From NCBI GenBank assembly GCA_002083825.1, contig DAZV01000036.1:103934-167933 (forward strand): a stretch of DNA of 64,000 nucleotides, in the 5' to 3' direction. Below, piece by piece: positions 4,027-60,640 of this stretch. The DNA is from Candidatus Sericytochromatia bacterium S15B-MN24 CBMW_12. Lineage in GTDB: Bacteria; Cyanobacteriota; Sericytochromatia; S15B-MN24; UBA4093. The translations under genes were made by a program, and so were the position numbers. How positions within the stretch are numbered: position 1 is the first letter of the stretch; the number at the start of each line of letters is the position of its first letter. A model generated the notes under the pieces. The model had not been told where the DNA came from, ran no database searches, and worked only from the letters and a program-made list of their open reading frames with translations.

Positions 4027-7000
4027 TCAGGTCAGGGCGGAGAGAATGGCGCCGAGGGCGTCGAGCACCTCGGGATCGAAGTGATCGCTTTCCCGCATGG
4101 CCGTAAGGGTGGCGGCGGGGGCATGGGCTTCTCGATACGCCGTGATCGTGGTCATGCCGATGAAGGCCTCGGCCACCGCCAGGACCCGGGCGAGCAGCGG
4201 GATTTCCTGGCCGCTCAAGCCGTCGGGGTAACCCGTGCCGTTCCAGCGCTCGTGATGGTGGCGGACCACCGGGACCACGTCCCGCAGCGAACTGGTGGTG
4301 CCTATCAGGCGCGCGCCGACGGTCGCGTGGGTCTCCACCACCCGGCGTTCCTGGTCCGTGAGCAGGGCGGGCTTGCGCAGGATGGCATCGGGAATCGCCA
4401 CCTCTCCGATGTCGTGAAGGAGAGAGGCTTGCTGCAAGACGGCCAGCTGATCCGAATCGAGCGCCATCTGCCGGCCGATGGCATGCACCGTCTCGGCGAT
4501 GCGTTGGTTGTGCTCGCGGTTTTCGGCGTCGTTGGCCTCGAGCGCCCAGACCATGGTCATGAGGGCGTCGAGGTAGCCTTCCTGCTTGCGGGCATCCTGC
4601 TGGAGGCGATCGATCGCGACCGCTGCCTGTCCCGCGAGGCGACGCCCCAGGCGCTCGGCGGTCGCGCCGAAGTGCTCGCTTTGGCGGCTGACGAGCAGTA
4701 AGAGCCCCAAGCTGCGAGACTGATGGGTCAGCGGGAAGCAAGCGAGCGAGCGACCCTCGGTCCATTCCTTCAGGCGGGCGAGACCCGGCGCGGAGTCATC
4801 GAGCGGCATGATCCGGGGGGTTCCGGAGGCGCTCGACTCGCCGAGCGGTCCCTCGTTAGGCGGGATGATCCACCCCAGTCGCTGGGTCATGGGCAGGCCA
4901 TGGCTCGCGCGAAGCCTCAGCCCCCCCTGGGTATCGGTCAGGAGCAGCATGGCGAAATCGGCGGTCATCCCCTCGGAGGCGATTTCCATCAGCGCCTCCA
5001 GGGCGTCGTCGAGGTCGTCGACTCGCATGACGCGCTCTTCGAGCCGGTTGGCGAGGGTCATTTCACGGTTGACGTCCTGATAGAAGGAGTGCCAGACCTG
5101 TGAGACCGCGAGCCGCAGGCTCTGGGTGAAGCCCTCGACCACCTCCATGACCTGGAGGCGGTCCTGAGGGGAGAACGGGGCCTTCTGGACGTGGTGGCGA
5201 ATGTTGTCGCAAAGCGAAAGAATCAGCGATTCGCTCTGGGTGAGCGAGATGCCGCGGGAGATGAGCTGGCTGATTCCCAGGCGGACGAGTCGATACAGGT
5301 GAGCTTGTCCATCGGGGGCTTCGTCGGAAGCGAGGCGATCCCCCAGACGCCGAAGCAGCGCTTCGAGCGCATCGCGCCAGCGATCGAGCTGTGCGCCCAT
5401 GAGCGGGACATCCAGCTCGCCGAGTCGGCGCTGTAGTTCGGTGGTGTGAGCCGCGAGCCCGCTGAGGATGTAACCCTGCCAGGCCGCGACATCGAAGGCC
5501 TCGCCCGAACGGGCCGGAGCACGCCGTGGGAGCTCCGCGGTTCCCCGCGGCGGCGTGTCGACGAGGACCGCGAGCGATCCCGGAGCGTTGGCGATGCAGA
5601 CGCGGTCGCGCCCCCCATGCTTGGCCTCGTAGAGTGCCGCATCCGACAAATCGATCAGTTCCTCGGGCTTGATCTCGGTCGCGGGGCGCGCGGCGATCCC
5701 GATGGACGCCGTCACCCGCACCGGGGTCTGGCCCCGTCCCCAGAAGGGATGCCGCGCCAGGTTCTTGCGGATTCGCTTGGCGACCTCTAGGGCCTGCTCG
5801 CATGTGGTCTCCGGAAGAATCACCGCGAACTCCTCGCCGCCGTAGCGGGCGACGACATCGGTCTCGCGGGTCGAGTCTCGCAGGATCTGCCCGAAGGAGC
5901 GAAGCACCTGGTCGCCTAGCAAGTGACCATGCGTATCGTTGAAGCGCTTGAAGTGATCCAGATCGATGATCATCAAGGCGACGGAGTAGCCGAAACGCGG
6001 AGCCCGCCGGAACTCGGCCTCCAGCTGACGCTGGAAGTACCGCCGGTTGTAAACGCCTGTCAGCCCATCGGTGATGGCCAATTGCTGAGAAGCCTGATAC
6101 AGCTGGGCGTTCCGGATGGCGACGGCGGCATGGCTCGCGATGACGGTGAGCATGCGTTCGGTGACCGTGGAGAATAGCCCGGTAGCGTGCTTTGCGATGG
6201 CGATGACGCCGAGGGTGTCGCCCTCGGCGGAGATGGGAACGGCCAGCAGAGCCCGATGGCCGAGCAGCGCGGCGTAGGCGTCGGGGTCGAGCGCGGGGAT
6301 GTGGACGCACTCCGAGTTTTCGGCGGCTTTGCCGATGGGACCCTCTCCGATCGGGATTGGGGGGATGCGGCGATTGGGTGGGTCGGCGGACATGGGTTGG
6401 GCCAAGAGCATTTGACCCGCGTCATCCTTGAGGAAGATCAGGCATTCGTCGCAGGCGAGGACCTGCCGGACCTCCGTGCCGATCATGACCATGGTTTGAC
6501 GCAGGTCGATCTGGGCGCTGATTCGCTGGGCGATTTCGTGAAGGACGGAGAGCTCCTGGTGAGCTTGCTGGAGTTCGCTTTGTTGCTGGCGCGTCTTGAG
6601 GTAGAGGATGAAGACGCCCGCGGACAAGAGCAAGGGTACCAGGAGCAGGGCCGCCCCCATGAGGCCATGAAGGTGGTACAGCAGGACCATCAGCGCGGAA
6701 AGGGGGCCCAGCATCAGGGTGCTTAGGAGTTCCCAGCGATCGTCTTCCCAGAGGAGGCGGAATACCGGGGCATCTTTGGCGAGGGCGAGGAAGCCGTTGA
6801 CGAGGGTGACGTTGACCGTGAGGTAGGCGAGGGTCGCCAGGAAGAAGAAGGGCACGTCGCTGAAGGAAAGGTTTTCGGCGGGGGTGATGCCGGCCCAGGT
6901 GAAGACCGCAAAGCTTGCGGCGCACGAGAAGGTGTACTGGGCGAAGTTGAAGGCGGCGAGCGACCAGTGGCGACGCTGCACCAGCATGTGCGCGGCGAGC

Positions 7001-29003: not shown

Positions 29004-29033
29004 AATCTTAACGCGGTTAACCAAAAACGACAA
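29004..29033 (-). promoter_or_regulatory. putative mrp-marR promoter (TTGTCG-18-TAAGAT) with a GGTTAACC palindrome in the spacer
   Basis: On the minus strand, TTGTCG lies at 29033-29028 and TAAGAT at 29009-29004. The palindrome GGTTAACC (29015-29022) sits between them, the classic repressor-operator position. Confidence 0.35.
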
Positions 29034-44586: not shown

Positions 44587-44617
44587 ATTAACCAGGGCAA
44601 TCATTAACCTGGTTAAT
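44587..44617 (+). promoter_or_regulatory. candidate operator upstream of czcD: ATTAACCAGG + 15-bp palindrome ATTAACCtGGTTAAT
   Basis: Read directly. TTAACCAGG (44588-44596) is the inverted repeat of CCTGGTTAA (44608-44616). The site lies in the divergent intergenic region 70 nt upstream of the czcD ATG. Confidence 0.4.
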
Positions 44618-49672: not shown

Positions 49673-49814
49673 GCCGCGCCTTCTCCGCCAGGTTGCGGCC
49701 AGCGCGTCAGGCGAGCTGCTGCGGCTCCCAGGGGTGGGTCTCTCGGAGATGGGCATGGTGAAAGTAGCCTTTCGAGAGGGTGCATGTCACGCGGACGGGA
49801 AACGTCTCGATTAC

Positions 49815-49855
49815 GGAGCGAGGGAAGAGCATGGCTCTTCCCTCGCTCCGTTTCT
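49815..49855 (+). terminator. rho-independent terminator downstream of the dnaE-lipoprotein unit
   Basis: GGAGCGAGGGAAGAGC-atg-GCTCTTCCCTCGCTCC is a 16-bp perfect stem followed by GTTTCT, 143 nt after the stop at 49672. Confidence 0.6.
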
Positions 49856-49929
49856 CCGGGGGCAGGCGGGTGGCGTGGGGCCTGGTGAACATAACCTATA
49901 TTATCGGACGCAAGAGAGGCGCCGGGCCG

Positions 49930-50043
49930 TGGGTGGGGATTTTGGCTGAAAGCCGGTGATGGTGAGGGTTTTGGGGGTTTGAAAGGGTTGGCTGGCTGGA
50001 GGGATGGGTTCGGGGAGGTTGGTCGCTCGGGGTGGGTTTGGGT
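49930..50043 (+). repeat. G-tract / GT-skewed low-complexity block
   Basis: At least 10 runs of GGG or longer in about 115 nt, with very few C on the plus strand (gggtgggg...gagggttttgggggtttgaaaggg...ggagggatggg...cgggg...cggggtgggtttggg). Confidence 0.7.
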
Positions 50044-50184
50044 TTGCGGTGTTATGTAATACCGGGGCTGGCATGGCGAGAGGAGCGCCCGCACGGGCAT
50101 GCCCATGAACGGCGGCTACAGGGCATCTCCGGGAATCGGGCGCTGTAATCCGCGTGGATAGGGGCTTTCAGGGGATTGTTGTTA

Positions 50185-50193
50185 TGTTATAAG
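50185..50193 (+). promoter_or_regulatory. extended -10 element TGtTATAAG immediately upstream of the first 26-nt repeat
   Basis: aTGtTATAAG at 50184-50193, with CTTTCA 17 nt upstream. A transcript would begin at about 50199, roughly 180 nt upstream of the 50377 ATG. Confidence 0.3.
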
Positions 50194-50197
50194 GAAC

Positions 50198-50223
50198 GCC
50201 ATGGCTTCGCCGGCGAACACCCC
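50198..50223 (+). repeat. 26-nt direct repeat, copy 1 (GCCATGGCTTCGCCGGCGAACACCCC)
   Basis: Identical 26-mer to 50268-50293. It is built from two 8-nt palindromes (GCCATGGC, CGCCGGCG) plus AACACCCC. Confidence 0.85.
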
Positions 50224-50267
50224 CCGTAGCCCCCCATCGAGGGGGGCAAGTTAACGGTAGATTAGAG

Positions 50268-50293
50268 GCCATGGCTTCGCCGGCGAACACCCC
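50268..50293 (+). repeat. 26-nt direct repeat, copy 2
   Basis: Identical to 50198-50223, with a 70-nt period. Confidence 0.85.
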
Positions 50294-50376
50294 TACCTCT
50301 CGGGGGAGCTGGACAAATTCTTTACCTTACCTTAAACTAGATCAATAACAGCGGGTGCTGCAACAGCGAGGTTGCG

Positions 50377-50754
50377 ATGAAGCGGATGCAATTTTTGGCG
50401 AGCGTGGTGATCCTGGCGATCTCCGCTTGCGGAACCCCCACGGTCACCCTGCCGGGCAAGGCCCCGGTCATTCAGTCCATGAGTGTCGAGAGCGGGGACG
50501 TTCGCGTCGGCGCCGGCATCAAGCTGATGGCTCAGGCGACCGCGGATTCAAAAGCCCTGAGCTACGCCTGGTCATCGAGCGGCGGCATGATCACCATGCC
50601 GAAGCAGGCCAAGTCCATCTGGCTGGCCCCCACGTCTGTCCCCTACACCCCGTATCCCGTGACCATCGTCCTGACCGTCACCGACGCGCACGGGCGAACC
50701 GACAAGCAAAGCGCTCAGGTCTTGGTCCGAAACCAGGGACTGGCCACTCTCTAG
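50377..50754 (+). CDS. small lipoprotein with PKD/Ig-like beta-sandwich domain
   Basis: Starts MKRMQFLASVVILAISACG (lipobox) and contains ...YAWSSSGG...VTIVLTVTDAHGRTD..., a PKD-like pattern. Confidence 0.6.
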   Translation: MKRMQFLASVVILAISACGTPTVTLPGKAPVIQSMSVESGDVRVGAGIKLMAQATADSKALSYAWSSSGGMITMPKQAKSIWLAPTSVPYTPYPVTIVLTVTDAHGRTDKQSAQVLVRNQGLATL

Positions 50755-50876
50755 CTGAGCCTTGCAGGCGGCCAAGGGTTGCCTAGGAGCACTCGTCGCG
50801 ACGGCCCGATACGGCCGCGGAGTTTTGCGATCCTCGCGGAAGCCGCCGACAACTCCCATGAACAGCTCAACAGCGA

Positions 50877-51133
50877 TTAACCAGGCTAACAATTAACCGC
50901 ATGAACAGTTCGCATGGTTAATCAGTCGCGCGCTTGATCACAGGTCAACCACGGCAATATATAACCTGCTTAACCAATAACCTTGTTAACAGGTATCCTG
51001 GTTAATTAATTAACCAGCTAACCAACGATCTGTTCGGCGAGCGACTTGCTGATTGAGCCACCTGTGAAGCCTGACTAACAGTTAATCTGGTTCATAGTTA
51101 ATTGAGTTAACCATTAACCAAGCTAATTGTTAG
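50877..51133. repeat. AT-rich array of TTAACC/GGTTAA boxes
   Basis: Perfect hexamers start at 50877, 50893, 50970, 51010, 51107 and 51114 (TTAACC) and at 50916 and 51000 (GGTTAA). One-mismatch variants include CTAAC, ATAACC, GTCAACC and GTTAAT. By hand count, 50941-51120 is about 41% G+C. Confidence 0.85.
50998..51017. repeat. 20-bp perfect palindrome CTGGTTAATTAATTAACCAG
   Basis: Read directly. It is the reverse complement of itself and forms the core of the TTAACC array. Confidence 0.9.
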
Positions 51134-51160: not shown

Positions 51161-51526
51161 TCATCCGACGACGACGTCCTCCGCCGCTACCGAGAGGGTT
51201 CCGAACTCCTCGGTTCTCACCTTCACGACGATCCGATGCGCCCCTGGCTCCACGTGGGTGTCCTCGACGATCACCGTGACCAATGCTCCCTTGCCGAAGG
51301 CGATGGGGGCCGCTTCGCATACCGACGTCGCAGCGCGCGTGATGCCCGCCTGGGCGAACGCCAGTTCATGGGCTACATAAGTCCTGCCGTCCAGTTCGAC
51401 CTCGTGTACCTCGACGATCCTCGCCGGCATCACGGAATTGTAGAGCGCAAACTTGACGCCTTCCATGCCGTTTTCCAGGCTACCCATCCGATAGAACTGC
51501 TTGAGCATGAACGCTGGCAATTTCAT
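51161..51526 (-). CDS. hypothetical 121-aa protein (no recognisable family)
   Basis: GC3-rich ORF with a protein-like beta-rich sequence (MKLPAFMLKQFYRMGSLENG...). It is divergent from the GNAT operon. Confidence 0.55.
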   Translation of the reverse strand: MKLPAFMLKQFYRMGSLENGMEGVKFALYNSVMPARIVEVHEVELDGRTYVAHELAFAQAGITRAATSVCEAAPIAFGKGALVTVIVEDTHVEPGAHRIVVKVRTEEFGTLSVAAEDVVVG

Positions 51527-51704
51527 TTTGAACCCGTCCTCCTCGCATGACCGTCAACACGTCGTTCTACCTTCTTACAACCCATCGTTCGGCAAGGCAA
51601 GCCCTTGGTATTCCCGCGATCAATTGGGGTAGAATGAACCAAGACAGCGCGTTCCCTCGCGGCGCATCTCCGTGACTGCGGCCCCTAGCCAAAGGAAATC
51701 ACTC

Positions 51705-52880
51705 ATGAGTGGTCTTCTCCGTTCGATACAACTACCGGACGGCCGAGTCCTCGAACTGCGGCGTGCCGGACCCGACGATTCGGACCGCATCGTCGCCCTC
51801 TACGATCATATTTATCAAGGGTCTTACACCCTCGACATCGTCAACGAGCCTGCCGATCGCCTTCAGGCCCTAAAGGATGCCAACCACTACTGGCTCATCG
51901 TCGACGACGGCGAAGCCATCGTCGGCTCCGTCATCCTCGAACTCAATCCCGATCAGCGCCACGGCAAGGTCTTCGCCGCCGTCATGCGAGACGATTTCCG
52001 CCGCTACGACGTCATGAGCCGCCTCATCGGCATGGGCATCCAGAAGCTCATGTACGACGACCGCCTTTGCGACGCCATCTACGCCACCACCCGAACCGCC
52101 AGCATCGGACCCCGCCAGCTGATGAAGAAGCTCGGCTTCGTCAGCCTCGGCATCTTCCCCAACGTCCACCGCCTCGCCGAGTACGAAACCCACGGCCTCA
52201 GCGCCCTCTTCCACTCCGATGCATGGCAGAAGCGCCGCCGTCTTCCCAAGCTCATCCCTGAGGTCGAAGGCTTCTACCGCGTCATCCGGCAGACCTTCCA
52301 CCTGGAACCCGCCGAGATCATGCCCGCCAAGCACCAGCCCAAGCTCAAGATGATCCGCGGCGAGGCCGTCGGCCAAGAGCTCGAGCAAGAACGCAAATCC
52401 GGCGCTCTTCTCATGGACTTCTTTCCCTTCCACAAGGCCAACTTCCTCTTCGCCAACGACGACCGCAGCGTCAGCGCCTTCGTCAACTACGAGGGCAAGG
52501 ACGGCTACGGCACCCTCGTCGCCCTCAAGGCCCCCATCGAGGACCTTCGAGGCGTCCTCGAAGCGGTCTTCGAGATGGGACAGCGCATCGGGATCGTCTA
52601 CATGGAAATCCTCGTCGACGCCTACGAACCCCGCATGCAACGCGCGGCCCTCGCGGCCCAATTCCTGCCCTGCGCGTATTTCCCCAGCATGCAGCAGACC
52701 GATGACGACCGGAAGGACTTCCTTGTCTTCGCCCGCTCCATGCTGCCCCTCAACTTCTCCAACGTGCAGATGACCCCACGCGATCGCCAGTTCCTCGACC
52801 ACTACCTCCAGAACACCGAGTTCCGGAACCTGGTCGTCAAGATGCACTTCACCGGCCCCCTCGACGAGGGACGCCCGTGA
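51705..52880 (+). CDS. two-lobed GNAT-like acyltransferase
   Basis: N-terminal GNAT pattern (ELRRAGPDDSDRIVALY...WLIVDDGEAIVGSVILE...KLGFVSLGIF) plus a second GNAT-like half. ATG 51705 follows AAGGA. GTG 51672 is the ORF-track start. Confidence 0.7.
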   Translation: MSGLLRSIQLPDGRVLELRRAGPDDSDRIVALYDHIYQGSYTLDIVNEPADRLQALKDANHYWLIVDDGEAIVGSVILELNPDQRHGKVFAAVMRDDFRRYDVMSRLIGMGIQKLMYDDRLCDAIYATTRTASIGPRQLMKKLGFVSLGIFPNVHRLAEYETHGLSALFHSDAWQKRRRLPKLIPEVEGFYRVIRQTFHLEPAEIMPAKHQPKLKMIRGEAVGQELEQERKSGALLMDFFPFHKANFLFANDDRSVSAFVNYEGKDGYGTLVALKAPIEDLRGVLEAVFEMGQRIGIVYMEILVDAYEPRMQRAALAAQFLPCAYFPSMQQTDDDRKDFLVFARSMLPLNFSNVQMTPRDRQFLDHYLQNTEFRNLVVKMHFTGPLDEGRP

Positions 52881-54202
52881 ACGCCAACATAGAGGGCGAT
52901 CGCGCGGACCTGCTCGCCGCTCCCGAAATCGAAGCCCTTTCCCGCCTGAAGCTGCGCACCCTGCTCGAGATTGCCCGCGCGCGCTCCCCCTTCTACCGCG
53001 ATCGTCTCCAGGACCTTCCCCTTCACGACCCCGACGTCCTCTCCGCCATTCCCGTCCTGACCCAGGAAGACCTCGTGGCCAACAGCCCCCCCGAGAGCGA
53101 AGCCCTGCTCACCGGCCCCCTGACCGCGGCCTATCTCTTCCGAAGCGGCGGAACCACCGGCGCCCCCAAGTTCTCACCCTTCGCCGTCACCGAATTCCAG
53201 CGCTGGATCGCCATCTTCCAGCGCACCTACGGCGCAGCGGGCCTGGTCGCCAGCGATCGCGTCGCCAACCTCTTCGTCAGCGGCAGCCTCTATGCCTCCT
53301 TCATCTTCATCAACCGGATGATCGAGGAGATGGGCTGCCTCAACCTCCCCTTCACCTCCGCGGCTCCCCCCGACACCGTCAGTAGCCAGCTGGAGCGCTT
53401 CGACGTCAACGTGCTCATGGGCATCCCGTCCTGGCTGCTGGAAGTCGTCTCCGAACTCTCCCCCCTCGCCGCCAGCCGCGTCACCAAGGTCTTCTACGGC
53501 GGAGAGAACCTCTACCCCGAGGAACGCGAATGGCTCCATGAACGCCTTCCCAACCTCGACATCATCGCCTCGGGCGGCTACGCAGCCGTCGACTCCGGCA
53601 TGATAGGCTTCCAGTGCCAGGCGGCCCCCGCCTCGGTTCATCACGTCCACGCCGACCATGTCATCCTCGAACTCGTCGATCCCGAGACCCTGCAGCCCGT
53701 CGCCCCGGGCGAGGTCGGACTCATCCTGGTCACCACCCTCGATCGCCACCTGATGCCCCTCATCCGCTACCGCATCGGCGACGTCGGCCGCTGGGTTCCC
53801 GGAGACTGCCCATGCGGCCGAAGCATGCCCCGATTCGAGCTGCTCGGACGCGGGGACGACACCCTCCGCATCGGCATCGCCACCGTGGGCATCGACGAGA
53901 TCCTCCCCGCCATCGCCCAGATCCCCGGGCTCTCGACCCACGCCCAGATCGTCAAGGAGCGAATCGCGCGCAAGGACCAGCTGACCGTGCGCGTCGAGCG
54001 CCTCCCCGCCACTGAACTGCCCCCCGAGGCGCTTTCGGACGCCCTCGGCAAGCTGATCCGGCTCCAGAAGCCCGACCTCGCCAAGCTCGAGGCCAGCGGC
54101 TACGTCCATCCGCTGCGCATCGAGGTCCTGGAGCCCCGCTGCATCGGGCGCGTCACGGTGACCGGAAAGATTCGCCGCGTGGTCGATAGGTCCCGGGAGT
54201 AA
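52877..54202 (+). CDS. PaaK / coenzyme-F390-synthetase-type adenylate-forming enzyme
   Basis: P-loop FRSGGTTGAPK, then CPCGRSMPRFELLGRGDD (the PaaK-family C-terminal hinge region). GTGA overlap with the upstream gene. Confidence 0.85.
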   Translation: MNANIEGDRADLLAAPEIEALSRLKLRTLLEIARARSPFYRDRLQDLPLHDPDVLSAIPVLTQEDLVANSPPESEALLTGPLTAAYLFRSGGTTGAPKFSPFAVTEFQRWIAIFQRTYGAAGLVASDRVANLFVSGSLYASFIFINRMIEEMGCLNLPFTSAAPPDTVSSQLERFDVNVLMGIPSWLLEVVSELSPLAASRVTKVFYGGENLYPEEREWLHERLPNLDIIASGGYAAVDSGMIGFQCQAAPASVHHVHADHVILELVDPETLQPVAPGEVGLILVTTLDRHLMPLIRYRIGDVGRWVPGDCPCGRSMPRFELLGRGDDTLRIGIATVGIDEILPAIAQIPGLSTHAQIVKERIARKDQLTVRVERLPATELPPEALSDALGKLIRLQKPDLAKLEASGYVHPLRIEVLEPRCIGRVTVTGKIRRVVDRSRE

Positions 54203-54207
54203 CGCGC

Positions 54208-55326
54208 ATGTCCGCCATCGATCGCCTGGTAGAAATCGACGAACTCTACGACCTCACGCCCGCGCATGACGAGGCCTTCCTCGCGGCCATGCGCCAAGCC
54301 AGCTCCTGGCATGTCGAGCGCTCCCCCGTCTTTCGGAACCTTTCCCGCAAACACGGATTCAGACCCGACGATCTGCGGCGCATCTCGGACGTCTCGCGCT
54401 TGCCCTACGTCTTCGTGAACGCCTTCAAGCAGTACGAGATCCTCTCCGTCCCGCGCGAGGATATCGTTTTGACCCTCACCTCGTCCGGGACTTCCGGCCA
54501 GAAGAGCCAGATCATGTTCGACGCGCCGTCGCTCGACCGCGGCCTGCGCATGGTCGAGCGCGTTTTTGAAAGCATGGATCTCAAGCGCCCGGAGCAACTC
54601 GTCAACTACATCCTCTTCGCCTACGATCCCGAGGAAGCCCGCATGGTCGGCACGTCCTACACCGACGACAACCTGACCAACCTGACCCGCAAGGGCAAGC
54701 TCTACCATGCCCTCCGCTGGAACCCCGACAAGCTCGAGTTCGAGTTCCGCCCCGCCGAGTGCTATGCCAAGCTCCTCGAGTATGCCGCGGAAGGGCTGCC
54801 GGTTCGATTGCTCGGATTTCCCGCCTTCCTGCATCGGCTGGTCCGCTTCCACCAGGAATCCGGCGCCCCGCCGCTCGACCTCGGCCAGGACTCCTACGTC
54901 CTCACCGGCGGCGGCTGGAAGACCTCCGAGCAATCCGCCATCGACAAGGACTCCTTCATCGCCGACGTCTCCCGGACCCTCGGCATTCCCCCGGGAAACC
55001 TCCGAGACGGTTACGGTCTGGTCGAACATGGGATCGCCTACATCGAATGCGAGCATCATCGCTTCCACGTTCCCGCCTTCGCGCGCGCCTTCGCCCGCGA
55101 CGTCGCCACCCTCGACCTCCTGCCCGAGGGTGAGACCGGCTTTCTCCAGCTCGTCACCCCCTACATGCAATCCATGCCGACCCTCTCCCTCCTCACCAGC
55201 GATCTCGCCGAGGTGGGCGGAAACTGCCCGTGTGGCCGAAAGTCCGGAACCATCATGCTGCGAGGGCGTGCCGGAACCCGCAAGAACAAGGGTTGCGCCA
55301 TCACGGCCGCGCAGCTCTTGAAGTAG
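54208..55326 (+). CDS. LuxE-type acyl-protein synthetase
   Basis: Contains LTSSGTSGQKS, TGGGWK and CPCGRKSGTIMLRGR. Size (372 aa) and motif order match the LuxE family. Confidence 0.85.
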   Translation: MSAIDRLVEIDELYDLTPAHDEAFLAAMRQASSWHVERSPVFRNLSRKHGFRPDDLRRISDVSRLPYVFVNAFKQYEILSVPREDIVLTLTSSGTSGQKSQIMFDAPSLDRGLRMVERVFESMDLKRPEQLVNYILFAYDPEEARMVGTSYTDDNLTNLTRKGKLYHALRWNPDKLEFEFRPAECYAKLLEYAAEGLPVRLLGFPAFLHRLVRFHQESGAPPLDLGQDSYVLTGGGWKTSEQSAIDKDSFIADVSRTLGIPPGNLRDGYGLVEHGIAYIECEHHRFHVPAFARAFARDVATLDLLPEGETGFLQLVTPYMQSMPTLSLLTSDLAEVGGNCPCGRKSGTIMLRGRAGTRKNKGCAITAAQLLK

Positions 55327-55336
55327 GAGACCTCCC

Positions 55337-57979
55337 ATGCACTACCTCTTCGGCCGCTCCTTCGAGGGCCGGATCGACGATTCCCAGGCGCGGACGATTC
55401 TCTCCGAGGCCCGCTCGCGCCGCGCGGCGTTTCGGCGGGTCCCGCTGGAAACCATCGTCAGCGTTCTCGAACGCGCGGGGCGCCGATGGTCCGATCCGCA
55501 AGATCCCCTTTACAAGCAGATTCTGGCCGAAGCTCCCGCCCAGATAGGCTTCAGTCGCCCCATGGTCGAAGCGGAGCTAAGAAGCGTCGCCCTGGCCCTG
55601 AGTCGCCCCTACCTCGTCCCCAAGATCGCCAGGGAACTTGGAAGCCCCGGTGTCCTGGACGGCTGGACCGGCGGCTTCGCTCAGCCCTTCACCCGGGCGA
55701 TGCCCCGCGGAGTGGTCTTGCACGTCGCGAGCGGAAACGTGCTCAGCGCCGGAGCCCTCAGCATGGTGGAGGGAATGCTCACCAAGAATATCAACCTCCT
55801 CAAGGCCGCGAGCCGCGCCACGCTCTTCCCCTCGGCCTTCGCCCGGTCCATCCGGGAAGTCGACGAGGAGGGACTCGTCGCCGAATCCTTCGCCGTGCTA
55901 TCGTGGCCCGGATCCGGCAGCCAGGTCCACCGCATCTTCCAGCAAGACTGCGATGCCATCGTGGTCTGGGGTGGCGAGGACGTCGTCAGGACCTACCGGG
56001 AGGGTCTCGGACTCAAGTGCAAGCTCATCGAGTACGGCCCCAAGGTCAGCTTCGGGGCGATCGCCTCCGAGCGCCTCGACCACCCCGATACCGCCAGGGA
56101 TGCCGCCCTGGCCGTGGCCCTCTGGGATCAAAGCGCATGCTCCAGCCCCCAGGTCCTCTACGTCGAGGATGCCGGCCCCGACCACCAGGCCACCCTCGCC
56201 TTCGTCGATAGGCTCGCCTCCGCCCTCGCCGACGTTCAGCAAACGCTGCCCCAGGGGCCACTGGACCTTCAGGAGCGCGCCGAACTCACCAAAGAGCGGC
56301 TGGTCGCCGAGGTCACGGAAGCCCTGGATCGCGGCGTCCTGCGAACCCCGGGGCGCGAACCCGACTGGACCGTCATCGCGGAGTGGGATCCCGAGTTCAA
56401 GCTCTCGCCCCTCTTTCGCACGATCTTCGTCAAGCCGGTCGCCGACCTCGCGTCCGTCCCCGAACTCGTCGCGCCCTATGCCGACTATCTTCAAACCGCG
56501 GGCATCGCCGCCGCCCCCGAACGCGTGAGCCTCCTCGCCGAAAGCCTCTTCGACATGGGCTTGCTGAGGGTCACGACCCTCGCGGGCATGTCCGGTGGCG
56601 AACCCGGCGAACCTCATGATGGGGGCTACGCCCTGCATGCGCTCGTCAAGTGGGTCACCATGGGCTTCCGGGAAGAAACCGAGCGGTATGATGCCGCCGA
56701 GTGGCATTCCCCCGAAACGACCGAGGGCCTGACCTTCGCCAAGCTGAAGCACCTGCTCGAGGACGTCGCCCCCCAGGCCCCCCTCTACCGCGAGCGCCTC
56801 GCAGGCCTGCAATTACGCTCCATGGCCGACTGGACGGGGGTTCCCACCCTGAGCAAGGACGACCTTCGCGCGGGCACTCCCCCCCGCAGCGAGGACCTCT
56901 TCACCGGGGATCCCCTAGGAGCCCACTTCCTGCGGAGCGGCGGCTCGACCGGCGAACCGGCCCTCTCGGCCTTCGCCTACCCCGATTACGAGGCCGACAT
57001 GGCCCGCGCCGCCCGCGGTCTCTTCGCGCTGGGCCTGAGACCCGGAGACCGCGTCGCCAACCTCTTCATGGCGGGACACCTCTACGGCTCCTTCCTTTCC
57101 ATCAACCGCGCCCTCGAACTCGTCGGCTGCAACAGCTTCCCCTTCACCAGCGCCACCCCCGCCAAGGAGCTGCCGGCCTTGCTGAGGGCCTACGGCATCG
57201 AGGTCCTCGCGGGCCTGCCGTCCTGGCTCATGGAGGTCTTCGACGCCATTCGCCAGGATCCCATCGGCGTCACCATCCGCAAGGTCTTCTACACCGGTGA
57301 GCACTTCTACCCCCAAGACCGCGAGCGTCTCGCCCGCGAGTTCGGCATCCTGCAATTCGGAAGCCTCGGCTACGGCACCGTCGACGCGGGCCCCATCGGC
57401 TACCAGTGCGCCGAAAGCCACGGCGGCGTCCATCACCTCCACTCCGATCATCAGTTCATCGAGATCGTCGACTCCGAATCCCTCCAGGCCGTCCCCGCGG
57501 GAGAGCCCGGCGAACTGCTGATCACCAACCTCAACCGCCGGCTCATGCCGGTCGTTCGCTACCGGATTGGCGATCGCGCCCGCTGGATCCCCGAAAGCTG
57601 CCCTTGCGGCCGAAGCACCCCCCGCTTCGAACTTCTCGGACGCTGCGACGACATGATGGTCCTCGGCGGGATCAACCTCACCTACGCCGAACTGCACGAG
57701 GCCGCCCTCGCCGTCGACGGCGTGAACGCTCCGCTGCAACTCGTTCTCTCCCGCGCGGAGAATCGCGACCGCCTCACCCTGCGCATCGAGGCCTCCGAAC
57801 CGCGCCTCGCCGACGCCCTGGCCGAAGGCCTCCTCGCCCGCGTCGACATGCTCCGCCGGATCATCGACCGCGGCCAGCTGAACCCGCTCGCCGTCGAGGT
57901 CCTCCCGCCCGGCGGCATCGAGCGCTTGCCGCGAACGGGCAAGATCCGAAACGTGATCGACCGGAGAAACGATGCCTGA
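55337..57979 (+). CDS. fusion protein: LuxC-type acyl-CoA reductase (N) + PaaK/F390-synthetase-type adenylase (C)
   Basis: N-terminal part: HVASGNVLSAGALSMVEGMLTKNINLLKAAS and WDQSACSSPQVLYVE (LuxC catalytic Cys context). C-terminal part (from about aa 440): LRSGGSTGEP, CPCGRSTPRFELLGRCDDMMV, paralogous to 52877..54202. Confidence 0.85.
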   Translation: MHYLFGRSFEGRIDDSQARTILSEARSRRAAFRRVPLETIVSVLERAGRRWSDPQDPLYKQILAEAPAQIGFSRPMVEAELRSVALALSRPYLVPKIARELGSPGVLDGWTGGFAQPFTRAMPRGVVLHVASGNVLSAGALSMVEGMLTKNINLLKAASRATLFPSAFARSIREVDEEGLVAESFAVLSWPGSGSQVHRIFQQDCDAIVVWGGEDVVRTYREGLGLKCKLIEYGPKVSFGAIASERLDHPDTARDAALAVALWDQSACSSPQVLYVEDAGPDHQATLAFVDRLASALADVQQTLPQGPLDLQERAELTKERLVAEVTEALDRGVLRTPGREPDWTVIAEWDPEFKLSPLFRTIFVKPVADLASVPELVAPYADYLQTAGIAAAPERVSLLAESLFDMGLLRVTTLAGMSGGEPGEPHDGGYALHALVKWVTMGFREETERYDAAEWHSPETTEGLTFAKLKHLLEDVAPQAPLYRERLAGLQLRSMADWTGVPTLSKDDLRAGTPPRSEDLFTGDPLGAHFLRSGGSTGEPALSAFAYPDYEADMARAARGLFALGLRPGDRVANLFMAGHLYGSFLSINRALELVGCNSFPFTSATPAKELPALLRAYGIEVLAGLPSWLMEVFDAIRQDPIGVTIRKVFYTGEHFYPQDRERLAREFGILQFGSLGYGTVDAGPIGYQCAESHGGVHHLHSDHQFIEIVDSESLQAVPAGEPGELLITNLNRRLMPVVRYRIGDRARWIPESCPCGRSTPRFELLGRCDDMMVLGGINLTYAELHEAALAVDGVNAPLQLVLSRAENRDRLTLRIEASEPRLADALAEGLLARVDMLRRIIDRGQLNPLAVEVLPPGGIERLPRTGKIRNVIDRRNDA

Positions 57980-59240
57980 AACGCGCACCCTGGGAACCCG
58001 CCGCCGTCATCCGACGCTCGGGCGCAACCGGGACTTCCTCCTCCTCTGGTCCGGACAAGGCGTCTCCCAGATAGGCACCAAGGTCCTTCAACTCGCCCTC
58101 GTCTGGTGGGCCCTCGAAAACGGCGGCAGCCTGGCCGCCGTGAGCGGCGCGCTGGTGGCGACCTCCCTGCCCTTCGTGATCGTCGGCCTCTTCGCGGGAC
58201 TGCTCGCGGACAAGTTCGACCGCCGCACCCTGATGATCGCCTGCGAAGCCGGAAACGGCTTTTTCGTCGCCGCTCTCGCCTACCTGGCGTTCACCGACCA
58301 GCTCACCCTCCCCCTCCTGATGGCCGGCACCGCCCTGGTCTCCACCCTGGGCGCCGTCTTCAGCCCCGCGGCCATGGCGGCCATTCCCGACCTCGTCGAT
58401 GAACCCGACCTGCTCCGCGCCAACTCGCTGCAGGAAATGACGGCCCAGGGTGCCCTCGTCTTCGGCCCCGCCCTGGGCGGCGCCCTGCTCGCCACCATCG
58501 GAGCCCCCGCGGCCTTTCTCGCCACCGCCATCACCTACGGGCTGAGCAGCCTCTGCATGCTGGCGTTCCGCCTGGAACGCCGCGCCAGCGCTCCGAACGC
58601 CTCGGAAGCCCCCGCCGCCCCCCACCTCCTGCAGGAACTCGTCGGCGGCTTCGCCGTCCTCAGGGAAAACCGCACCATCGCAACCCTGCTCGGCCTCTTC
58701 GCCGTCGCGAACTTCCTGCTCGTTCCCATCACCGTGTTTCTACCGTACTACGCCAAGGAGGTCTTCGCGGTGGGCGCCGGCGGCCTCGGCATGCTCGAAG
58801 GCAGCATCGGCGTCGGCATGATCGTCGGAGCCGTCGCCCTCATCCGAAAAGGCGACGTCAAGAGGCGCCGCCGTGCCATCCAATGCGGCCTCGCGATTCC
58901 GGGCCTGGCGCTGGTCGGGATGGGCCTATGGGCCTATTTCCCCGGGTTTCTCGTGGCTCTCTTCATCCTGGGAGCCGCCTTGTCGGTCATGAATGTCGTC
59001 TCGATGACCTACTTCCAGGAAAACGTACCTCCCGAACGGCTCGGACGCTTCATGGGCCTCTTGATGACGATCATCATGGCCCTGATGCCCCTTTCCTACG
59101 CCGCGGCCGGACTCGCGACGCTCGGAATCCCCGCAGGAAGCCTCATGACGGCTGCGGGGGCGCTGCTCCTGCTGCTGGGACTCGGCTTGCCCCTGCTGGG
59201 ATCGTTGAAACCACTGGCGATCGGAGAGAAACATGGTTGA
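57972..59240 (+). CDS. MFS transporter
   Basis: About 12 TM segments, N-terminal RNRDFLLLWSGQGVSQIG and GLLADKFDRR (MFS loop 2-3 motif). Overlaps both neighbours by 8 nt. Confidence 0.85.
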   Translation: MPETRTLGTRRRHPTLGRNRDFLLLWSGQGVSQIGTKVLQLALVWWALENGGSLAAVSGALVATSLPFVIVGLFAGLLADKFDRRTLMIACEAGNGFFVAALAYLAFTDQLTLPLLMAGTALVSTLGAVFSPAAMAAIPDLVDEPDLLRANSLQEMTAQGALVFGPALGGALLATIGAPAAFLATAITYGLSSLCMLAFRLERRASAPNASEAPAAPHLLQELVGGFAVLRENRTIATLLGLFAVANFLLVPITVFLPYYAKEVFAVGAGGLGMLEGSIGVGMIVGAVALIRKGDVKRRRRAIQCGLAIPGLALVGMGLWAYFPGFLVALFILGAALSVMNVVSMTYFQENVPPERLGRFMGLLMTIIMALMPLSYAAAGLATLGIPAGSLMTAAGALLLLLGLGLPLLGSLKPLAIGEKHG

Positions 59241-60522
59241 TCGAATCAAGGGAAGTAAGCTGCTCATGAAGCGGGTGCTCAGGCATATCCTGCCCGAAAA
59301 TCCCCTGTCGGGCGATCGCCAGCTGGCCTACTACGCGCTTCTGCAGCGAATCACGGCCTCCCTCCACCGCTCCCTGGACTTCGATGACATCCTCGAAACC
59401 GTCGTTTCCGGCCTTCAACTCGAACTGCAGCTGACCCGCTGCTCCGTCTGGTTCCCCGACAGCGACGGCGAACTCATGATCCGGCGGGCTGCGGGCGAAT
59501 CCATCGAGGGGCCCGAGGCCGGCGCGGTTTGGCAGGTCGCTTGGGACGCCCTCGCGGACCGAAGCGTCGTGGCGGTCGATGACATGACGAAGTACGGCCG
59601 GCCTACCCCCGCCCCCCCTCGCCTGGGGTCGCTGGGGCAGGTCATGGCCGAAGCCGTCATCGCGGCCCCCATCCTTCTCGAGGCCGAACTGAAAGGCCTG
59701 CTGCTGCTCGAAGCCGCCCAGCCTCGCCGCTGGGCCCCCCTGAACATCCAGTTGATCGAGGCCATCGCCGAGCAACTCTCGGTGGCGCTCGTCCATGCGC
59801 GCATGATGACCTCCCTCAAGGAACTCGACGCCATGAAGACCGAATTCCTCTCCATCGCCTCCCACGAACTCCGGACCCCCATCACCGTGATCCGAGGCTA
59901 TGCCGCCGTGCTCATGCGCCACGGAGCCACGCTCTCCGAAGCCGAACGCGCCGAGTTCGTCGGCATGATCGACGACCGCGCCATCCATCTCGCCCGCCTC
60001 GCCGAGGACGTCCTCGATGTCTCCCGCATCGAGGGAGGACGACTCTCGCTGAACGAGGAACCCTTCGACTGGGAAGCCGTGGTCAAGAAAATCCTTCAAG
60101 GACTCGATCTCAAGTACCACCGCCCCTCGAACATCCATCTCGAAGCCATGACCCAACGACGCATCCTCTCGGGAGATCCCGCCCGCGTCGAACAGGTGCT
60201 CCTGAACCTGCTCGACAACGCGATCAAGTACTCCCCCCCCCAGGCCAGGATCGATCTTTTGGTCCAGGGCACCCCCAGGGGAATTCGCTTCACCGTGAGC
60301 AACCCGGGCGAGGTTCTGACCGCCGCCGAAGTAAAAAAAATGACCGGAAAATTCGTGAGACTCGATCGCCATCGCACGTCAGGTGGGACGGGACTTGGCC
60401 TATATATCTGCATGAGACTCGTGGACCTGATGGGGGGGACGCTAACCCTCGAAGCGATCTCTGAAGGTGGCCTGAAGGCCGGGTTTGAACTGGCCTGCGC
60501 AAACGACATGCAAACGACCTAG
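59233..60522 (+). CDS. soluble GAF-domain sensor histidine kinase
   Basis: GAF region, HisKA H-box FLSIASHELRTPIT, and HATPase_c N/G boxes (LLDNAIKYS, GGTGLGLYI). No TM segments. Confidence 0.88.
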   Translation: MVDRIKGSKLLMKRVLRHILPENPLSGDRQLAYYALLQRITASLHRSLDFDDILETVVSGLQLELQLTRCSVWFPDSDGELMIRRAAGESIEGPEAGAVWQVAWDALADRSVVAVDDMTKYGRPTPAPPRLGSLGQVMAEAVIAAPILLEAELKGLLLLEAAQPRRWAPLNIQLIEAIAEQLSVALVHARMMTSLKELDAMKTEFLSIASHELRTPITVIRGYAAVLMRHGATLSEAERAEFVGMIDDRAIHLARLAEDVLDVSRIEGGRLSLNEEPFDWEAVVKKILQGLDLKYHRPSNIHLEAMTQRRILSGDPARVEQVLLNLLDNAIKYSPPQARIDLLVQGTPRGIRFTVSNPGEVLTAAEVKKMTGKFVRLDRHRTSGGTGLGLYICMRLVDLMGGTLTLEAISEGGLKAGFELACANDMQTT

Positions 60523-60640
60523 CGTTTATTGACCCACTTGCCTTCCCGCTAACTTTATGGGAAGGTTAAGGAACTTAAGTTAGAGATAACCGCAAGTCGC
60601 TTTGTTTGGAACAGGCGCGCACGAGACAACGAGGTTTTGT

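Follow-up and report, generated by a model that had tools for sequence, protein, structure and literature searches.

A distant relative of the leupeptin operon with a different acyltransferase in a Sericytochromatia-like genome

Within the window, the 64,000-nucleotide stretch of DNA that was analysed, six plus-strand genes form an operon that, judged by its sequence, is distantly related to the characterised leupeptin (leupABCD) pathway but has a different acyltransferase. The host is a relative of cyanobacteria that does not photosynthesise. The operon probably serves to make a small N-capped peptide aldehyde and export it, with no non-ribosomal peptide synthetase involved. The first-pass annotation had described the operon as an orphan that fits no characterised pathway. 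This view has to be given up: the operon has the same parts as leup, including the LuxC::PaaK fusion, and shows clear homology in its core proteins. As far as its five genes for biosynthesis and export go, the arrangement is largely that of this characterised pathway; the GAF kinase lies outside it. The general logic proposed earlier, in which three adenylating modules, a thioester reductase, an acyltransferase fold and an exporter yield an aldehyde and/or an N-acylated small molecule, is supported.

The operon itself is confirmed. It encodes a GNAT-like acyltransferase, here termed GNATL (51705..52880), a stand-alone PaaK-like ligase resembling LeupC (52877..54202), a LuxE-type acyl-protein synthetase resembling LeupA (54208..55326), an 880-aa LuxC::PaaK fusion resembling LeupB (55337..57979), an MFS exporter of the MFS_3/EntS/Mef-like type (57972..59240; Pfam, NCBIfam) and a soluble GAF-HisKA-HATPase sensor kinase (59233..60522; Pfam). 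ORF calls reproduce the genes and junctions exactly as first described: a 4-nt GTGA overlap at 52877-52880 joins the GNATL and stand-alone PaaK genes, gaps of 5 and 10 nt precede the LuxE and LuxC::PaaK genes, and 8-nt overlaps link the fusion to the MFS gene (57972-57979) and the MFS gene to the kinase gene (59233-59240). All motifs quoted at the time (SGGTTGAPK, CPCGRSMPRFELLGRGDD, TSSGTSGQ, GGGWK, CPCGRK and QSACSSPQ) are present in the translations, and the LuxC, LuxE, PaaK, GNAT-like, MFS and GAF-kinase family assignments stand up to a Pfam profile search. The GNATL frame can be read from 51672 or 51705; the ATG at 51705 is preferable, as AAGGA lies about 9 nt upstream, the resulting 391 aa correspond to the length of homologues, and the source-contig gene call uses the same start. 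This ATG is separated by 178 nt from a divergent 121-aa gene (51161-51526, minus strand). The divergent intergenic region (51527..51704) presumably holds the operon promoter and ribosome-binding site; a scan of it for the sigma-70 consensus returned no site. Plus-strand terminator-like sites within the operon do not exceed chance (3 on both strands versus 8.5 expected). The source-contig gene calls include no carrier protein, PKS/NRPS, luxAB/D or paa genes.

The leupABCD genes of Klebsiella michiganensis/oxytoca, Photorhabdus and Xenorhabdus make up the leupeptin pathway (Li et al. 2020, Angew Chem 59:17872, as cited in PMC8283571 and PMC11480411; cited again for the Klebsiella and Photorhabdus operon in bioRxiv 10.64898/2026.08.25.747093). 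The pathway yields small peptide aldehydes that inhibit proteases and needs no non-ribosomal peptide synthetase. antiSMASH has a 'Leupeptin' region type (PMC12542766). In the leup nomenclature, LeupA is the LuxE protein, LeupB the LuxC::PaaK fusion, LeupC the PaaK-like ligase and LeupD the GNAT. The Klebsiella locus used here (L090) comprises an MFS protein, LuxE (378 aa), LuxC::AMP-binding (803 aa), PaaK-like (446 aa) and GNAT (305 aa); both published leupAB primers (PMC8283571) match it exactly and span 1,235 bp, the size of the published amplicon, which confirms its identity as leup. The Photorhabdus laumondii locus (L097) comprises LuxE (376 aa), LuxC::AMP-binding (801 aa), a 423-aa protein and GNAT (307 aa).

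The LuxE-type synthetase (PF04443, 1.5e-32) is 39% identical to Klebsiella LeupA over 374 aa (E 1e-89) and 41% identical to Photorhabdus LeupA (E 1e-98). The fusion, whose N-terminal half is a LuxC-type thioester reductase domain (55337..56671; PF05893, 3.8e-83) and whose C-terminal half is a PaaK-like adenylating ligase domain (56672..57979; AMP-binding, AMP-binding_C_2), aligns as a whole with Klebsiella and Photorhabdus LeupB at 31% identity over 777-791 aa (E 2e-80 to 3e-82). Taken domain by domain, the matches of the core proteins to leup are reciprocal best hits. The residues known from luminous bacteria are retained in both proteins. The GGGWK lysine, Arg355 and the acyl-cysteine motif TRxxKGC of P. 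phosphoreum LuxE (PMC9157457) all have equivalents here, the last at the C terminus as TRKNKGCAIT. In the alignment to P. phosphoreum LuxC (7xc6_A), WDQSACSSPQ falls on the catalytic Cys296 motif YDQQACFSTQ, and the putative catalytic cysteine, C268, is invariant in 17 fusion homologues. With these residues kept, a lux-type relay from acyl-AMP to acyl-Cys(LuxE), acyl-Cys(LuxC) and finally the aldehyde would be expected to hold in this operon.

The luminescence fatty-acid reductase has these same catalytic motifs, which could point to an enzyme of that type. LuxE and LuxC would then convert fatty acids to fatty aldehydes or alcohols, or, via the GNAT-like protein, to N-acyl lipids, for membrane or wax lipids, with the PaaK-like modules acting as acyl-CoA ligases. 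The LuxC domain indeed scores much the same against the N-terminal half of LeupB (120 bits, BLASTP) and true LuxC (109 bits, phmmer), and in Aeromonas flagellin-glycosylation islands LuxC/LuxE homologues adjoin fatty-acid genes (PMC7874193). We nevertheless consider this very unlikely. LuxE scores far higher against LeupA (265-287 bits) than against P. phosphoreum LuxE (87 bits), the NCBIfam equivalog scores are far below their cut-offs (125 versus 750 for LuxC, 103 versus 550 for LuxE), and neither LuxD nor an acyl carrier protein nor a gene for fatty-acid synthesis is close by in the source-contig gene calls. Moreover, the LuxC::PaaK fusion and the second PaaK-like ligase characterise leup rather than lux.

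The two PaaK-like modules likewise lead back to leup. The stand-alone ligase (441 aa; AMP-binding at 4e-11, plus AMP-binding_C_2) is a reciprocal best match of LeupC from Klebsiella (33% identity over 432 aa, E 2.8e-54) and Photorhabdus (31%, E 3e-55), and the fused module is a reciprocal best match of the C-terminal half of Klebsiella LeupB (37%); the lysine of its TGK motif, K869, is invariant in the 17 fusion homologues. The two modules are 42% identical to each other and adjacent in a rough neighbour-joining tree, suggesting that the stand-alone ligase arose in this lineage by duplication of the fused module and is not an ancient orthologue of LeupC. By analogy with leup, both are probably amide-bond-forming ligases. 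Phenylacetate-CoA ligases are the best NCBIfam and PDB matches of both modules (4r1l and 2y4o at 1e-39 to 1e-41 for the fused one), as would suit an aryl-acid pathway making CoA thioesters of phenylacetate-like or other aromatic acids, which would then be reduced to aromatic aldehydes or transferred by the GNAT-like protein. However, the PaaK equivalog scores reach only 138-158 against cut-offs of 646-700, the source-contig gene calls hold no paa catabolic genes, and both the reciprocal best matches and the gene context are those of leup, making an aryl-acid pathway highly improbable.

Relatives of the LuxC::PaaK fusion occur in 341 species genomes from a dozen or more phylum-level groups. Among 34 well-flanked related loci, LuxE is always present (34/34), an acyltransferase, either GNATL or LeupD-like, is found in 31, a stand-alone PaaK in 22 and an MFS protein in 19. 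The conserved unit is an acyltransferase, LuxE and LuxC::PaaK, with or without the stand-alone PaaK and MFS proteins. The five-gene set recurs in another Sericytochromatia genome (L004) at 55-58% identity. Gene fusions tie the parts together, with a LuxE-LuxC-PaaK triple fusion in Armatimonadota and MFS::GNATL proteins in other genomes, and count in favour of a leupeptin-type operon.

GNATL is the part that differs most clearly. Its Acetyltransf_1 match is weak (1e-5) and limited to residues 61-156; the description as two-lobed and GNAT-like holds, because the AlphaFold2 model has two alpha/beta lobes (pLDDT 86), and Foldseek relates one lobe to single-domain GNATs (about 1e-9 to 1e-10). We rejected GNATL as a LeupD orthologue, since only the N-terminal GNAT lobe aligns with the LeupD family (hhalign probability 97.3%, E 2.8e-11) and BLASTP gives E 0.11. 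GNATL is a distinct two-lobed family of about 390 aa. This family is small and sharply delimited: among 1.84 billion representatives, 57 clusters reach E<=1e-30 and only 288 reach E<=1e-3. Its CoA-pyrophosphate motif A is degenerate (DFRRYDVM versus R-G-x-G-[IV]-A in LeupD), so its chemistry may differ from that of LeupD.

Does GNATL nevertheless fill the LeupD slot? GNATL occurs in 15 and LeupD-like proteins in 16 of the 34 loci, never together, which argues that it does. Given this mutual exclusion in otherwise equivalent clusters, a specific N-lobe motif common to both (LY..VY.G.Y.LP.V against LFR.VYGD.YVYPDVY, hhalign) and a similar order of secondary-structure elements in the predicted models, the simplest reading is that the two do the same job. 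The same enzyme family could instead perform other chemistry: GNATL would then not be an acetyl-CoA N-acetyltransferase but catalyse another step (e.g. condensation, a non-acetyl cap or an export-coupled modification), and instead of a leupeptin-like inhibitor the operon would make a new scaffold, for instance a dipeptide aldehyde or a pyrazinone signal. The degenerate motif, the narrow family, the MFS::GNATL fusions, the sensor kinase coupled to the operon in this lineage and the many GNATL loci with a single PaaK module (16 of 23 lack the stand-alone one) speak for this possibility, but in light of the shared slot, motif and structural order we consider it unlikely.

The MFS protein (MFS_1 at 4e-39, MFS_3 at 6e-25, TIGR00900 at 1e-68) is not orthologous to its counterpart in the Klebsiella leup locus (E 0.012). 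The last gene, encoding GAF, HisKA and HATPase_c domains, is restricted to the two closest relatives (L009 and L010; 73-75% identity), and hence in 2 of 34 loci, so that the six-gene unit proposed in the first-pass annotation is not conserved as such. The kinase is a lineage-specific, translationally coupled add-on, which may have a regulatory or sensing role; no response regulator adjoins it in the source-contig gene calls. The divergent 121-aa protein, previously assigned to no recognisable family, matches PF25653 (HMG-CoA_red_N) over its full length (E 6.7e-19). Its gene is conserved only in the same two relatives (52-53% identity) and absent from the other related loci among the 34, and is probably a neighbour, not a pathway member.

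How could these enzymes cooperate? The domain chemistry is family knowledge, whereas the assignment of steps to individual enzymes is inferred, as it is for leup. The stand-alone PaaK and the C-terminal half of the fusion would each activate a carboxylate by adenylation and make one amide bond, giving a tripeptide acid, and GNATL would install or handle the N-terminal cap, the role of LeupD in leup. LuxE would then adenylate the C-terminal carboxylate of the peptide and load it onto its own C-terminal cysteine (TRKNKGC), from which the acyl group would pass to Cys268 of the LuxC domain for reduction of the thioester to the aldehyde with NAD(P)H, before export by the MFS protein. With three adenylating modules, two amide bonds and one reduction are possible, a count that fits acetyl-Leu-Leu-argininal. 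The product is most likely an N-capped tripeptide aldehyde. Like the leup products, for which such roles are reported, it would likely act in protease inhibition and/or, after deacylation and cyclisation, as a pyrazinone signal.

Finally, we would like to place the operon in the context of known systems. Both PaaK-like modules share the fold of the PaaK/coenzyme F390 synthetase clade (COG1541; PDB 2Y4N, 4R1L) and its motifs (SGGTTG/SGGSTG, CPCGR, the C-terminal GK lysine), but fail the phenylacetate-CoA ligase equivalog level and lack paa context. With P. phosphoreum LuxC-LuxE (cryo-EM structure 7XC6, PMC9157457), the operon shares the two folds and the catalytic residues, including the LuxC cysteine in a QxACxSxQ motif. 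Unlike the lux systems of luminous bacteria, it lacks luxAB, luxD and luxG, its LuxC is fused to a PaaK-like ligase, it scores far under the LuxC and LuxE equivalog cut-offs, and its substrate is probably a peptide, not myristate. The closest parallel is leup: five functional parts are common to both (LuxE, LuxC::PaaK, a stand-alone PaaK-like ligase, a GNAT-fold protein and, in Klebsiella only, an MFS protein), LuxE precedes LuxC::PaaK in each, the three core proteins are homologous over their full length (31-41% identity), and both do without a carrier protein or NRPS. However, the gene order is MFS-A-B-C-D in leup and D-C-A-B-MFS here, the 305-aa LeupD with its canonical CoA motif is replaced by the 391-aa GNATL of another family, the MFS protein belongs to another subfamily than that of Klebsiella, the stand-alone ligase seems to have arisen by a separate duplication, and a GAF kinase is attached. 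While the leup hosts are gammaproteobacterial, the operon described here comes from a Sericytochromatia-like metagenome-assembled genome.

The operon at 51705-60522 on the plus strand is homologous to the characterised leupeptin (leup) operon of Klebsiella and Photorhabdus and, judged from its protein sequences, is predicted to work like it, which overturns the first-pass annotation of an orphan gene cluster. The Klebsiella leup operon was found through a full-text search on the family names, in a preprint that lists it; later works citing Li et al. 2020 supply gene names and locus without enzymology. The locus itself was retrieved by scanning metagenome contigs with the published PCR primer leupA_f (PMC8283571), which matches eight contigs exactly. 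At the Klebsiella locus L090, the primer leupB_r is exact as well, and the two primers enclose 1,235 bp, in agreement with the published amplicon size (PMC8283571). This locus encodes an MFS transporter (419 aa), LeupA (378 aa, LuxE family), LeupB (803 aa, LuxC plus AMP-binding), LeupC (446 aa, PaaK-like), and LeupD (305 aa, GNAT), and the Photorhabdus laumondii locus holds the same four leup genes. The LuxE of the window aligns over its full length with LeupA at 39% identity in Klebsiella (E 1e-89) and 41% in Photorhabdus (E 1e-98), and LeupA carries the same C-terminal tail, GRAGTRKNKGCAITAAQLLK in the window aligning with GRAGTSKSRSCAIAASELIKES. LeupB combines PF05893 and an AMP-binding domain in a single polypeptide in both Klebsiella and Photorhabdus (803 and 801 aa), and the 880-aa LuxC::PaaK fusion of the window is 31% identical to it over 791 aa (Klebsiella, E 2e-80) and 777 aa (Photorhabdus, E 3e-82). 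The stand-alone ligase, PaaK1, matches LeupC at 33% (Klebsiella, E 3e-54) and 31% (Photorhabdus, E 3e-55). With the domains separated, PaaK1 and LeupC are reciprocal best hits, as are the fused module, PaaK2, and the C-terminal half of LeupB.

The gene structure of the first-pass annotation was reproduced by ORF calling: six plus-strand ORFs and a divergent 121-aa ORF lie where it had placed them. The plus-strand ORFs are joined by the overlap GTGA (52877-52880), by intervals of 5 nt and 10 nt, and by two overlaps of 8 nt (57972-57979 and 59233-59240), as it had stated, and every peptide motif it quoted occurs in the translations. Pfam and NCBIfam profile searches likewise uphold its family placements. 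The first protein, GNATL (391 aa), has a weak Pfam GNAT match confined to its N-terminal part; it is followed by a PaaK-like adenylating enzyme, LuxE (PF04443, 1.5e-32), the fusion of LuxC (PF05893, 3.8e-83) with a second PaaK-like module, an MFS_3/EntS/Mef-like transporter, and a soluble GAF-HisKA-HATPase kinase. All of the adenylases, and the reductase too, stay below the NCBIfam equivalog cut-offs. The 121-aa protein, thought to lack a family, matches PF25653 (HMG-CoA_red_N, 6.7e-19). Inside the operon there are no terminator-like sites beyond chance. Its GC content of 0.65-0.67 is near that of the remaining window (0.60-0.65) and therefore gives no sign of recent transfer. The window has an identical counterpart in contig DFYB01000031.1 (assembly GCA_002382535.1), and the fusion proteins of the closest relatives, in genomes labelled Candidatus Sericytochromatia, are 81-82% identical.

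Compared with Photobacterium phosphoreum LuxE (7xc6_E), the LuxE of the window keeps the lysine of GGGWK (Lys238), the equivalent of Arg355, and the C-terminal acyl-cysteine motif TRxxKGCxLS (here TRKNKGCAIT; Cys364 in P. phosphoreum). Its LuxC domain places WDQSACSSPQ over the Cys296 motif of 7xc6_A, and the cysteine aligned with Cys296 is invariant in 17 fusion homologues. The roles of LuxE Lys238, Arg355, and Cys364 and of LuxC Cys296 in the catalytic relay have been described (PMC9157457). Because these residues are conserved, a relay from acyl-AMP through acyl-S-LuxE and acyl-S-LuxC to an aldehyde would be expected in the window operon. The same residues are common to the LuxE and LuxC of the lux fatty-acid reductase, yet a lux operon is ruled out by NCBIfam equivalog scores far below cut-off (LuxC 125 bits vs 750, LuxE 103 vs 550) and by the lack of luxA, luxB, and luxD among the neighbouring called genes. 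A paa locus with a phenylacetate-CoA ligase PaaK is ruled out on similar grounds, as the PaaK equivalogs TIGR02155 and NF041878, whose cut-offs are 646-700 bits, reach no more than 114-158 bits and no paa genes occur among the neighbouring called genes. luxC and luxE also occur together with an acyl carrier protein and a 3-oxoacyl-ACP reductase in the flagellin-glycosylation islands of Aeromonas and Enterobacteriaceae (PMC7874193). We rejected such an island since the window is without pse genes, glycosyltransferases, and a carrier protein, and further since the LuxC::PaaK fusion is absent from the description of these islands (PMC7874193).

How would a leup-like operon assemble its product, a candidate N-acyl peptide aldehyde of the leupeptin family? 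In the scheme we propose, two amide bonds would be made by the two PaaK-like ligases, the N-terminus would be capped or otherwise handled by GNATL, the C-terminal carboxylate would be activated and reduced to the aldehyde by LuxE and LuxC, and the product would be exported by the MFS transporter. Three adenylating modules would then correspond to two amide bonds and one reduction, which is the arithmetic of acetyl-Leu-Leu-argininal. Leupeptins are reportedly assembled by separately expressed ligases and accessory enzymes. The SGG[ST]TG loop is retained in both PaaK-like modules of the window, and so is their C-terminal GK lysine; both should therefore be able to adenylate.

The fusion has 73 homologues in a word-indexed protein search, which did not reach LeupB with the fusion as query. 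In a one-genome-per-species collection covering 185,579 species, a LuxC::PaaK relative is encoded at 341 loci, in Sericytochromatia, Armatimonadota, Elusimicrobiota, Riflebacteria, Wallbacteria, Vulcanimicrobiota, Xenobia, Chloroflexota, Acidobacteriota, Bacteroidota, Desulfobacterota/Geobacterales, and Pseudomonadota, the last including the cultured Rhodopseudomonas palustris JSC-3b and Marichromatium gracile DSM 203. The window proteins were mapped onto the best 80 of the 341 loci, and frequencies were counted in those 34 for which 20 kb of sequence or more is available. All 34 contain LuxE, 31 an acyltransferase, 22 a stand-alone PaaK, and 19 an MFS transporter. The conserved unit is thus an acyltransferase with LuxE and LuxC::PaaK, to which a stand-alone PaaK and an MFS may be added, and it falls short of the six genes first proposed. 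Only 2 of the 34 loci, those of the two closest relatives, have the GAF kinase and the 121-aa gene. A further Sericytochromatia locus, L004 (55-58% identity), shares exactly five genes: GNAT-like, PaaK, LuxE, LuxC::PaaK, and MFS. In place of the 121-aa protein, the gene divergent from its operon (5078-6136, minus strand) encodes a Peptidase_C39_2 family protein, a neighbour that may be relevant because a dedicated protease reportedly cleaves leupeptins in Photorhabdus. In Armatimonadota (loci L005/L019, 7180-11013), LuxE, LuxC, and PaaK form a single 1,277-aa protein, preceded by the GNATL gene.

The second ligase may have been gained more than once. PaaK1 scores 191 bits against LeupC and 160 bits against the C-terminal half of LeupB; with the fused module of the window it shares 42% identity. 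The stand-alone and fused modules of Sericytochromatia come out as adjacent clades in a rough neighbour-joining tree, where the stand-alone ligases of the Geobacter/Bacteroidales type are a clade apart and the Klebsiella proteins have long branches. Identity and tree placement together therefore suggest an independent duplication. Among the best 80 of the 341 loci, 16 of the 23 with GNATL are without a stand-alone PaaK; by the proposed amide-bond logic, their product would therefore be one residue shorter.

In its acyltransferase, GNATL, the operon departs from leup. The GNATL family is small and sharply bounded, with 57 clusters at E<=1e-30, rising to no more than 288 at E<=1e-3, among 1.84 billion representatives, and its members are mostly 370-400 aa long. 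The AlphaFold2 model (pLDDT 86) has two alpha/beta lobes, one of which matches many GNAT structures in Foldseek (E ~1e-9 to 1e-10, target TM-score 0.65-0.8). The 50 Foldseek matches listed for the whole model are single-domain GNATs, with no two-domain GNAT, such as MshD, Fem, NMT, or Eis, among them. The second lobe appears GNAT-like solely by the order of strands and helices in the model, and the first-pass description as two-lobed and GNAT-like is supported by the model to this extent. GNATL and LeupD barely meet in BLASTP (E 0.11). Against the LeupD family profile, the N-lobe alone aligns (97.3% probability, E 2.8e-11), with the common motif LY..VY.G.Y.LP.V / LFR.VYGD.YVYPDVY, and a LeupD HMM finds no match in the window's GNATL clade at E<=0.01. 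GNATs canonically bind the pyrophosphate of acetyl-CoA through a Q/R-x-x-G-x-G/A motif. LeupD has a canonical motif A, R-G-x-G-[IV]-A; GNATL departs from the canonical CoA motif, with the family consensus EFRG.D[LV]M, DFRR[YH][DE][VL]M in the window's clade, and DFRRYDVM in the window itself. In the LeupD model (pLDDT 91), a GNAT lobe is followed by a linker helix and a second, smaller lobe, and the strands and helices of the latter follow the order seen at the end of the GNATL C-lobe, as compared by secondary-structure strings rather than by superposition. Across the 34 loci of at least 20 kb, GNATL occurs in 15 and a LeupD-like protein in 16, and the two never occur together, which argues that both fill the same slot.

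Clusters of the Geobacter/Bacteroidales/Rhodopseudomonas/Marichromatium type carry an acyltransferase of 490-530 aa that matches the LeupD profile from residue ~160 onward (E 1e-13 to 5e-28), for example at L008 2134-3609, L023 12658-14151, L053 3388-4983, and some 30 other loci. The L008 protein, the single member with Pfam data on record, also matches PF13581 (HATPase_c_2). Between the MFS and PaaK genes of L008 lies a conserved ORF of ~450 aa (4817-6166) with no Pfam match. Two proteins join an N-terminal MFS to a C-terminal GNATL (P0301, 803 aa, L099 8001-10412; P0318, 799 aa), which links export with the acyltransferase step. The L099 contig ends 42 codons into the following gene, and the N-terminus encoded there (..QELCKLEDPY..) is similar to the N-terminus of LeupA (..DALCALDSPY..).

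The DNA to the left of the operon holds several repeats. A G-rich non-coding stretch of ~700 bp (49673-50376) contains an exact 26-nt direct repeat, GCCATGGCTTCGCCGGCGAACACCCC, at 50198-50223 and 50268-50293 (spacing 70 nt), each copy holding the palindrome TTCGCCGGCGAA, and a near-repeat, TGTTATGTAATA / TGTTATGTTATA, at 50050 and 50180. Downstream of dnaE and a 150-aa gene, a perfect 18-bp inverted repeat with a 3-nt loop (49813-49851) may be a terminator hairpin, albeit one without a T-tract. A called 125-aa ORF (50377-50754, plus strand) has a lipoprotein-type signal peptide (LAISAC) and no Pfam match on record. Between the 3' ends of this ORF and the 121-aa gene, in a convergent intergenic region, lies a GGTTAA/TTAACC cluster (50875-51132) with 8 of the window's 18 GGTTAA sites within 243 bp, the whole window being expected to hold 5.2. 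It includes several imperfect palindromes of the type ATTAACC...GGTTAAT and may represent an array of protein-binding sites or a repeat element. Three more sites lie at 44588-44616, and further copies are the palindrome GGTTAACC at 29015-29022 and a site at 60564, ~40 nt past the operon's last stop codon. Rfam returned nothing at gathering thresholds in the window; at 49.6-51.75 kb, it gave sub-threshold, hairpin-like matches to miRNA models only.

Leupeptin is a protease inhibitor in laboratory use worldwide. The leup products of Klebsiella also yield pyrazinones with signalling activity (PMC11480411). By analogy, protease inhibition and signalling are both plausible as putative roles of the operon, and the coupled GAF kinase would be compatible with the latter. 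GNATL-type clusters are found in Sericytochromatia, Riflebacteria, Elusimicrobiota, Armatimonadota, Vulcanimicrobiota, Chloroflexota, and other groups. It is tempting to speculate, even if we consider it rather unlikely in this full form, that they constitute a separate, widely spread branch of NRPS-independent peptide-aldehyde synthesis, in which GNATL would catalyse a reaction other than N-acetylation from acetyl-CoA (for instance adding another type of cap, a condensation, or a step coupled to export) and would lead to new scaffolds or to signals of the pyrazinone type, connected in this operon to a GAF sensor kinase.

Finally, we would like to place the operon next to the known leup system. 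It shares with leup a LuxE-family LeupA with its C-terminal cysteine tail and a LeupB with N-terminal LuxC and C-terminal PaaK-like domains in one polypeptide; it differs from leup in lacking LeupD, a GNAT of ~305 aa with the canonical CoA motif. Its stand-alone ligase pairs with LeupC by reciprocal best hit but may be an independent duplicate of the fused module rather than a LeupC orthologue. Descriptions of the NRPS-independent leupeptin pathway in the literature consulted are confined to a few gammaproteobacteria, and the leup operon has been termed narrowly distributed (PMC11480411). Here, the LeupA/LeupB core is present in a non-photosynthetic sister lineage of cyanobacteria, and the LuxC::PaaK fusion reaches across at least a dozen groups of phylum rank, where two or more types of acyltransferase stand in for one another. 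This points to a large unexplored set of pathways for small peptide aldehydes, or pyrazinones derived from them, which bears on protease-inhibitor discovery and chemical signalling and offers a testable function for many proteins annotated as 'hypothetical' or 'PaaK-like' in metagenome-assembled genomes. The type of system is already known from leup; its remaining interest lies in the breadth of the family outside the gammaproteobacteria and in the uncharacterised GNATL component.
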